Origin: a virus
Taxonomy: Duplodnaviria > Heunggongvirae > Uroviricota > Caudoviricetes
Strand: one strand, 5' to 3'
DNA: 20,380 nt
Virus record (IMG/VR): IMGVR_UViG_3300045988_001600
Span: 1-20,380 of that record
Numbering within the stretch: the first letter of the stretch is position 1; each line of letters starts with the position of its first letter. Positions 15,225-17,039 of this stretch are shown here, one piece after another. A program made the position numbers and the translations under genes. The notes under the pieces are model-generated. The model worked only from the letters and a program-made list of their open reading frames with translations, did not search any database and was not told where the DNA came from.

Positions 15225-17039
15225 ATGTCAGATATCACCGCAAACTTAGTGGTAGGGATGCCTGCGCAGCTTTTCACGCTGGCACGCTCATTTAAAGCAA
15301 ATGCCAACGGTAAAATCTATCTTGGGCTACCAGATACCGATCCTACAATCCCAGCGAATCAAATCCCTGTTTATATTGAAAGTGAAACTGGAGATCTGAT
15401 TCCAACTGCTCAGCCGATAGTTATTAACGCGGGTGGGTATCCTGTTTACAACGGGCAGATATCAAAGTTCGTTACTGTGCAGAATTACAGCATGGCTGTT
15501 TACGACGCCTATGGATCGCAGCAGTTCTACTTCCCTGACATTGCAAAATACGACCCAGATCAGTTAAGGCAACAGCTTGAGAGTAGTTCTGGTGCTGACA
15601 TAGTCATGACTGGATCAGCTCCATTCATTGTTAGAAGTGTTGGCGACATTCTAAAAGACATTCCTACCAATAAATATTTTGGTGCCAAATGTGATGGTGT
15701 AACTGATGATACAGTAGCAAATCAAACTGCTCTTGACTGGTCTGCTGATAACAAAAGAACTGTTCTTTTTGTTGGTAAGTCATGTACATCATCTAGGTTG
15801 GTTTTAAAAAGTGGAGCTCGGATGGAGAACATAGGTTCAATAGCTCCTAAAAACTTCACTGACACAGTTGTTATAGAGATAAAGGATGATGCCTGGAGGT
15901 CTCCATATAATGATGGGATAACAGCAATTCAGACTGGGAATCGGGTTCTTCTGAATAACATTAATATAGATCCGGACGAGGTGATAAATGCTGTTGGCAT
16001 TTATGGTACTGATGGTGCTGGCCCTGTAATTAATAATGCAAGAATCTTTAACATGAGGAATGGAGGTATTAATATTGAAAAGGGTTATGAGTGGAAATTC
16101 AATAATACATCAGTTGTAGCACCGGAAGACCAGCTTGGAACATCTGGCGTTAGTGGGATATTACACCGTACTTCTGATAGTATGTATATCAATACAACGG
16201 TAGTTGGATATCCTGTCGGCATGGAAGTTACAAGCGGAGCAAATGACATAGTTAACACACACGTCTGGGGGTTAGATGGAATTAGAACAACACGCGTGAT
16301 GTTAATTGGTTTAAAGCTTGGTGGCAGCTCAAATAACGTTATTAATTATTATTCTGACACGCCACATAAGCTTGACAAAACACAGCCAGCAAGTATAGCT
16401 AATGGTGGGATCGGATATGTAATATCTGGTTTCAATAACAACTTGGTGTGCCCAAGAGTCCTTTTTCATGTAAATGATGGTCCTAAGTATGGGAAGGTAT
16501 TTTACATTAGTGGAACGGAAAATAGCATTAGAGAACCTGTTAGTTCTGATGTTTCAGGTATCGAAGATGGTGGTGTGTATGTGTTTTCTGGTTCAGCAAC
16601 GCCAATCAATAATAATGTATCTGGTGGTAACTTACAAAGCTTCTACGTTTTCCCTCAGTCCACTGGATTCAACCCAACCATAAACGCACCTTGCACATAT
16701 ACTTCACAAATATACAGACATGAATTGACTCAGCGCAGCGTATCAGGAAGGTTAACTATTGAATGCAACATAACAAGCAACGTTGGATCCGGTGCGTTTT
16801 CAATATCTCTTCCCCCTTACCTAAGCTCATTCAAGGGTGATTGCACTGGCTCAATATTCACAATATTGAATAATACTATACGCGCTGACACCAACCTAAT
16901 TGAAGTTAGAGGGTATATTACTGGAGGTAAAATATTTTTTAGAAGGATCTTCAGAAGTGGATCTCCTGTTGATGTTCAGATAACAGATCTGATAACAGGT
17001 TATGCATCAATAGACTTGAGCTTTTCTTGTTGTTTATGA
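15225..17039 (+). CDS. Tailspike protein: P22-type head-binding domain fused to a different receptor-binding domain
   Basis: 604 aa from ATG 15225 (the track opens at 15177; GGAG sits 8 nt before 15225). The first ~115 aa ([34 protein letters not shown] ... YDPDQ) match the conserved head-binding domain of P22/Sf6 tailspikes as recalled. The rest is AT-richer and unrelated by eye to the P22 endorhamnosidase. Confidence 0.88.

Follow-up and report, generated by a model that had tools for sequence, protein, structure and literature searches.

What does a phage tailspike recognise when its N-terminus is plainly of the P22 type and the rest of the protein is not? This question is raised by a tailspike gene in a 20,380-nt stretch of viral DNA (referred to below as the window), and bears both on the host range of the phage and on how such proteins are assembled from exchangeable parts.

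The tailspike gene and its prophage

The tailspike coding sequence occupies positions 15225-17039 on the plus strand (604 codons and a stop) and lies within an open reading frame spanning 15177-17039. A Shine-Dalgarno sequence, GGAG, can be read directly at 15213-15216 (plus strand), 8 nt 5′ of the ATG at 15225; inspection of the sequence revealed no ribosome-binding site for the in-frame upstream ATG at 15177. The ATG at 15225 gives the same protein start as in the P22 and Sf6 tailspikes, and agrees with the RefSeq gene calls in related genomes, which contain the same 1815-nt gene. Together, the GGAG site, the P22/Sf6-like start and the RefSeq calls define 15225-17039 as the exact coding sequence. 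A scan for promoters and terminators returned nothing exceeding shuffled background. At least 19 public contigs encode exactly this 604-aa protein, among them E. coli CP068820.1 and contigs from gut metagenomes.

The host element is a P22-like (Lederbergvirus-type) E. coli prophage. Positions 5225-20380 of the window are 100% identical to CP068820.1, and homologues of the P22 coat, gp4, gp10, gp26 needle, gp14, gp7, gp20 and gp16 proteins are encoded upstream of the tailspike (Pfam and identical contigs), where all virion genes are intact ORFs. The tailspike follows the ejection proteins gp7, gp20 and gp16 and the immI region, the position of the last gene of the late operon. On its 5′ side it adjoins a Mnt/Arc-type repressor gene, an immI remnant (14843-15136, minus strand; PF03869 and PF11423), which has the same position in P22-like genomes.

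Two features of this backbone were observed in passing. An HNH endonuclease gene (NUMOD4 and HNH_3; 7410-7994, within 7269-7994 of the window) is inserted after the first ~85 nt of the gp10 gene, with a second, diverged gp10 start 3′ of the insert from which full gp10 runs (7942-9360). The insert, which is absent from the TST3 prophage, resembles a homing-endonuclease cassette whose target flank has been duplicated. Beyond gtrA, the last gene of the conversion cassette described below, positions 19789-20380 contain no integrase, and a 100-aa ORF there (19979-20281, minus strand) has no Pfam match. Host dacD comes next in the identical contigs, followed by sbmC, yeeA and yeeX; in related prophages that share this gtr cassette, intS and tRNA-Arg (argW) occupy that place instead.

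Domain architecture and predicted fold

The original prediction placed a P22/Sf6-type attachment domain at the N-terminus, ending at a YDPDQ motif near position 15560, and this is borne out. The Pfam Head_binding profile (PF09008) matches residues 1-113 over its full length (E 1.1e-55; 15225-15563, plus strand), the N-domains of the P22 and Sf6 tailspikes in the PDB match with E values of 1e-34 to 1e-50, and YDPDQ corresponds to residues 109-113 (15549-15563). The turn to AT-rich sequence noted beyond this domain is real but moderate: GC content passes from 45.7% (15225-15563) to 39.1% (15564-17039); for comparison, the structural genes (1-14753) have 49.0%, and gtrC, which lies downstream, has 32.1%.

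Directly after YDPDQ, the motif LRQQL marks the module boundary and begins a joint and linker region (residues 114-150; 15564-15674, plus strand) of low model confidence. Since AF2 applied to the single sequence gave a pLDDT of 33, the model used here is that obtained from a 43-homologue alignment, as a monomer. Over residues 150-604 its pLDDT is mostly 80-98, with the lowest blocks at 58-64. A long stack of short strands (residues ~150-470) is followed by a C-terminal domain of beta-strands (residues ~485-604; 16677-17036, plus strand; AF2 secondary structure, pLDDT 84-95), to which a role in trimerisation might be assigned by analogy. Both the model and fold searches identify the stack as a right-handed parallel beta-helix (residues ~151-470; 15675-16634, plus strand), the predicted O-antigen binding and cleaving body, in keeping with the earlier remark that the receptor domain was compatible with such a fold. 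The enzymes retrieved by the fold searches are generic beta-helix proteins whose chemistry varies widely, with hydrolases, lyases and epimerases among them, so that the fold does not fix the mechanism. Pfam gives a sub-threshold pectate-lyase-like match at the helix cap and PHROGs weak generic tail matches only. Four conserved acidic residues, D230, D318, D378 and E447 (alignments A2 and A3), are candidate catalytic residues.

In the PDB, neither sequence nor profile searches turned up a solved structure related to the receptor domain. The phmmer and profile matches to P22 and Sf6 are restricted to residues 1-117, with Sf6 extending weakly to residue 175, and a receptor domain of the P22/Sf6 endorhamnosidase type was accordingly rejected; the lack of resemblance to these domains, proposed from inspection, is true at the sequence level. 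P22 gp9 and Sf6 gp14 share with the window spike the head-binding domain, a gene located behind gp16 and mnt, O-antigen conversion genes further downstream and the general plan of anchor, beta-helix and C-terminal domain. Their receptor domains, in contrast, have no sequence similarity to that of the window (10–22% identity in structural alignments) and their substrates are rhamnose-containing O-antigens of Salmonella or Shigella, where that of the window spike is probably O153, as argued below. The gene and domain pattern observed cannot be explained by chance.

The receptor module is of the AV101 TSP3 type

When phage genomes were searched in translation, residues 114-604 matched Escherichia phage AV101 with 87% identity and an unclassified wastewater phage with 79%. 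The AV101 protein is the tailspike TSP3 (WJJ54145.1; Agtrevirus, Ackermannviridae). In BLASTP, window residues 114-604 align with TSP3 residues 158-648 with 428 of 491 positions identical and no gaps, a full-length and collinear homology of the receptor domains which extends from the LRxxL joint to the C-terminus of a protein that is also a predicted beta-helix. The central helix is 96–100% identical, and most of the 13% of positions that differ belong to the top of the helix (residues 114-290), where identity ranges from 36 to 93% per 30-residue block. Over residues 151-270 the blocks are 66–93% identical in amino acids and 67–78% in nucleotides; over residues 271-600 both values are 90–100%. 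Residues 1-113 are unrelated to AV101 tsp3, whose anchor is a 157-residue Ackermannviridae TD-type domain in place of the P22 head-binding domain. The phages differ likewise: AV101 is a virulent 157-kb myovirus with four spikes, the window a temperate podovirus with one.

TSP3 has been characterised experimentally. In the AV101 study (PMC10791037), the purified protein produced large translucent zones on O153 strains only, together with small zones on two O8 strains on which it did not block infection, and pre-treatment of the O153 strain ESBL058 reduced the AV101 titre by about 5 logs; the O-types of the AV101 hosts appear to be genome-derived. Its authors also describe the TSP3 receptor domain as resembling E. 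coli prophage proteins, which they expect to bind the same O-antigen (PMC10791037). The receptor domain of the window spike had been regarded as unknown or novel in its specificity. Its high identity to a characterised tailspike, O153-specific as a purified protein (PMC10791037), refutes this.

Exchange of the module between phages

That a conserved head-binding domain is joined here to a horizontally exchanged specificity module, as originally proposed, is confirmed by the occurrence of the same domain on several phage anchors. The module begins at the same residue (LRxxL) in three contexts: after YDPDQ in the window spike, at residue 158 in AV101 TSP3 and at residue 130 in a siphovirus-type prophage protein. 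Among database homologues of the module, N-terminal anchors of at least four types occur (PF09008, PF18668, PF03906 and PF26808). The siphovirus-type protein (WP_225092852.1, 620 aa, from E. coli 2017C-4173W12) has a receptor module 79% identical to that of the window behind a PF18668-type anchor, and its gene follows those for the tape-measure protein and TipJ, a different virion architecture. There too (CP030768.1, 4138-8748) the module is followed by convergent gtrCBA genes, with 88% DNA identity, in a host that has the O153 cluster. Spike module and conversion cassette appear to travel together across phage morphotypes.

Exchange is also visible among tailspikes in the same P22-like context. 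Those of TST3 and TBE6 are 99% identical to the window protein and have an acyltransferase gene downstream, not gtrABC. Those of Ecol_545, C1 and FG31-1 are 86% identical and diverge strongly after residue 270 (88–98% nucleotide identity to the Ecol_545 type over residues 1-~260; 53–76% amino-acid identity over residues 301-480). That of 401651, with 66% protein identity, diverges strongly after residue 180 (96–100% nucleotide identity before this point, about 50% after it) and is likewise followed by an acyltransferase gene and not by gtrABC. All of these strains have the O153 cluster. A recombination joint can be placed at the 3′ end of the window gene, in its last four codons (17022-17039, plus strand): the sequence 5′ of it is of the TST3/AV101 type (ending SFTCQL-stop) and that from the joint onwards of the Ecol_545/FG31-1 type (SFSCCL-stop). 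A megablast match of the gene to TST3 ends at query nt 1805, and in a four-way DNA alignment the region 3′ of the joint, from the intergenic sequence through gtrC, stays Ecol_545/FG31-1-like.

The direction in which the module reached AV101 can be read from what accompanies it. Past the stop codon, AV101 (OQ973471.1, 9477-9710) and TST3 (21816-22049) are identical at 233 of 234 nt, a similarity ending abruptly at 9710. In TST3 this stretch is the 3′ end of the convergent O-antigen acyltransferase gene, and AV101 retains its last 67 codons (66 of 67 identical) on the minus strand, directly 3′ of tsp3. The presence of a conversion-gene fragment in a virulent phage indicates, from the sequence comparison, that AV101 acquired the module from a P22-like temperate phage. 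The remnant supports a proposal made by the AV101 authors, that virulent Ackermannviridae take receptor modules from prophages (PMC10791037). It is overlapped by a 51-aa 'hypothetical protein' in the AV101 annotation (9509-9664, plus strand).

Carrier genomes and the O153 cluster

Of 5426 complete E. coli genomes, 15 match the tailspike gene at the DNA level: two (TST3 and TBE6) at 99.6%, five at 87.8%, one at 83.7% and seven in the 5′ part only. In F1005, a strain with a related spike, the O-antigen cluster is matched exactly by the published O153 wzx primers (taken from the supplement of PMC7403468), at the published distance of 741 bp. The O178 wzx primers have no match in any locus compared, the F1005 cluster included. 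DebRoy et al. and Iguchi et al. 2015 disagree on whether the O153 and O178 clusters are identical (PMC4732683), so an in silico O153 label depends on the reference set; the cluster considered here is O153 of the DebRoy type, as it is matched by the O153 primers and not by those for O178.

The wzy-GT-wzx segment of the F1005 cluster is present in 80 of the 5426 complete genomes (1.5%), one of which is named CE-O153H30; genomes with this cluster came from pig, goose, cow and humans in several countries. Among the matches listed, at least 13 of the 15 spike carriers have it, including TST3 and TBE6, and a fourteenth, Ec-U18, has an identical first glycosyltransferase after galF. The total of at least 14 of 15, against 80 of 5426, is a count of complete genomes with a related gene, which are not phylogenetically independent and do not include the window's own host, CP068820.1. 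The association is far beyond chance given the 1.5% background. Host range, which had been judged unpredictable from the phage backbone, can consequently be predicted from the identity to TSP3 and from the O153 genotype of nearly all hosts of related prophages.

Within the cluster itself, the O153 wzx gene (32642-33820 in F1005) is represented in most of the 80 genomes by two annotations, one for a truncated flippase and one for a hypothetical protein, and in a few by one intact gene, which suggests either that a frameshift polymorphism is common here or that annotation splits the gene systematically. In F1005, an IS1 lies between the O153 cluster and gnd.

The gtrABC cassette

Three genes on the minus strand are convergent with the tailspike. 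The nearest encodes a gtrC-type serotype-specific O-antigen glucosyltransferase (17092-18519; PF14264, E 6e-21), followed by gtrB, a bactoprenol glucosyltransferase (18500-19429; PF00535, E 2e-31; RefSeq homologues are annotated yfdH), and the flippase-like gtrA (19426-19788; PF04138, E 7.5e-14). Together, gtrA, gtrB and gtrC form the standard O-antigen glucosylation cassette. The gtrC gene is covered over at least 80% of its length in only seven complete genomes, all seven with the O153 cluster, which fits a glucosyltransferase specific for the O153 O-antigen. Judging from these genomes, gtrABC probably modifies the same O-antigen as that targeted by the spike and, by analogy, could protect the lysogen against phages carrying this spike.

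Proposed function and alternative explanations

The explanation that we consider likely is that the gene encodes a trimeric, O153-specific, O-antigen-degrading tailspike, and that the gtrABC genes which follow act on the same O-antigen. Its support lies in how the domains are arranged, in the predicted fold, in the identity of 87% to TSP3 and in the link with O153 genomes; the trimer, a hydrolytic rather than lytic mechanism, the catalytic residues, and what Gtr modifies and to what effect are inferred. In P22, Sf6 and HK620, three tailspike copies are attached to the tail by the N-domain, and the beta-helix binds and cleaves several O-antigen repeats. By analogy, residues 1-113 would dock the window spike on the phage tail, three copies attaching through this domain. 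From residue 114 onwards, the beta-helix module is predicted to bind the O153 O-antigen along the helix and to cleave it by glycoside hydrolysis, bringing the virion down to the outer membrane, and the convergent gtrABC genes would limit superinfection of the lysogen by glucosylating the same O-antigen. The O153 repeat unit is Hex2HexNAc2Pent1 with D-Ribf and is without uronic acid, which makes hydrolysis more likely than beta-elimination. A polysaccharide lyase, such as K5 lyase, would not suit such a substrate, and the fold similarity to lyases is generic.

The spike might instead recognise a modified (glucosylated or O-acetylated) O153 or a related O-antigen and not plain O153, in which case its differences from TSP3 and the domain subtypes would reflect adaptation to seroconverted hosts. 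Few changes can shift the specificity of a tailspike, and at least three diverged subtypes are found in strains of O153 genotype, those of the window and TST3, of Ecol_545 (53–76% over residues 301-480) and of 401651 (~50%); the conversion gene beside them varies, being gtrC in some cases and one of two acyltransferases in others. In a P22-like prophage of a further O153-genotype strain, MLI106K1 (CP116931.1, 5001-8318), the same head-binding domain is joined to a receptor domain of only distant similarity, and gtrC shares no more than 49% identity; the tailspike there is 44% identical overall, nearly all of this in the first ~120 residues, and represents a second spike type in O153 hosts. Diverged modules paired with two gtrC types and two acyltransferases could be viewed as an arms race in which the window variant has come to prefer modified O153. 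The pairing is however inconsistent: next to the window type lies gtrC in the present prophage but an acyltransferase gene in TST3, and a correspondence between domain subtype and conversion gene was rejected for this reason. Since, moreover, the near-identical central helix of TSP3 (96–100%) is active on O153 isolates, we regard both recognition of a modified O153 and an arms race of this kind as unlikely.

Two other explanations, that the module targets a capsule or another exopolysaccharide and that the prophage has decayed, carry much less weight. If the first were true, the O153 association would be a clonal coincidence, for which the related lineages among the genomes counted might speak, and the small zones formed by TSP3 on two O8 strains, with infection unblocked, could suggest a second substrate (PMC10791037). 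But the O153 cluster is what the genomes from pig, goose, cow and human sources in several countries have in common, in only 1.5% of all genomes; TSP3 pre-treatment lowered AV101 plating by ~5 logs on an O153 host (PMC10791037); and the adjacent gtrC acts by family definition on O-antigen. A non-O-antigen target is, in view of this, very improbable. As to decay, the missing integrase 3′ of gtrA, with host dacD in its place, and the HNH endonuclease gene interrupting the start of gp10 might mark a remnant in which the tailspike gene no longer functions. P22-type prophages, however, have their integrase at the opposite prophage end. The tailspike ORF is intact with a good ribosome-binding site, the virion genes upstream are all intact ORFs, and the identical 604-aa protein recurs on the 19 or more contigs, gut metagenomes among them. 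That the gene is a non-functional relic we consider highly doubtful, and an active O153-specific tailspike remains the preferred explanation.

Annotation of related proteins

RefSeq names the related prophage tailspikes 'phage head-binding domain-containing protein'; the gene can now be annotated as a probable O153-specific tailspike. For typing or phage engineering, the prophage adds a probable O153-targeting depolymerase from a temperate phage. The practical value of these results is modest. The mosaic plan is ordinary for P22-like tailspikes and the receptor module is already known from AV101 TSP3, and the comparison settles no open question; its outcome would not surprise a specialist. A further relative of the module is concealed by its name: a 437-aa protein annotated as 'LysR family D-serine deaminase transcriptional activator' has 76% identity to half of the receptor module, and is probably a prophage remnant fused to, or mis-called beside, dsdC near argW.
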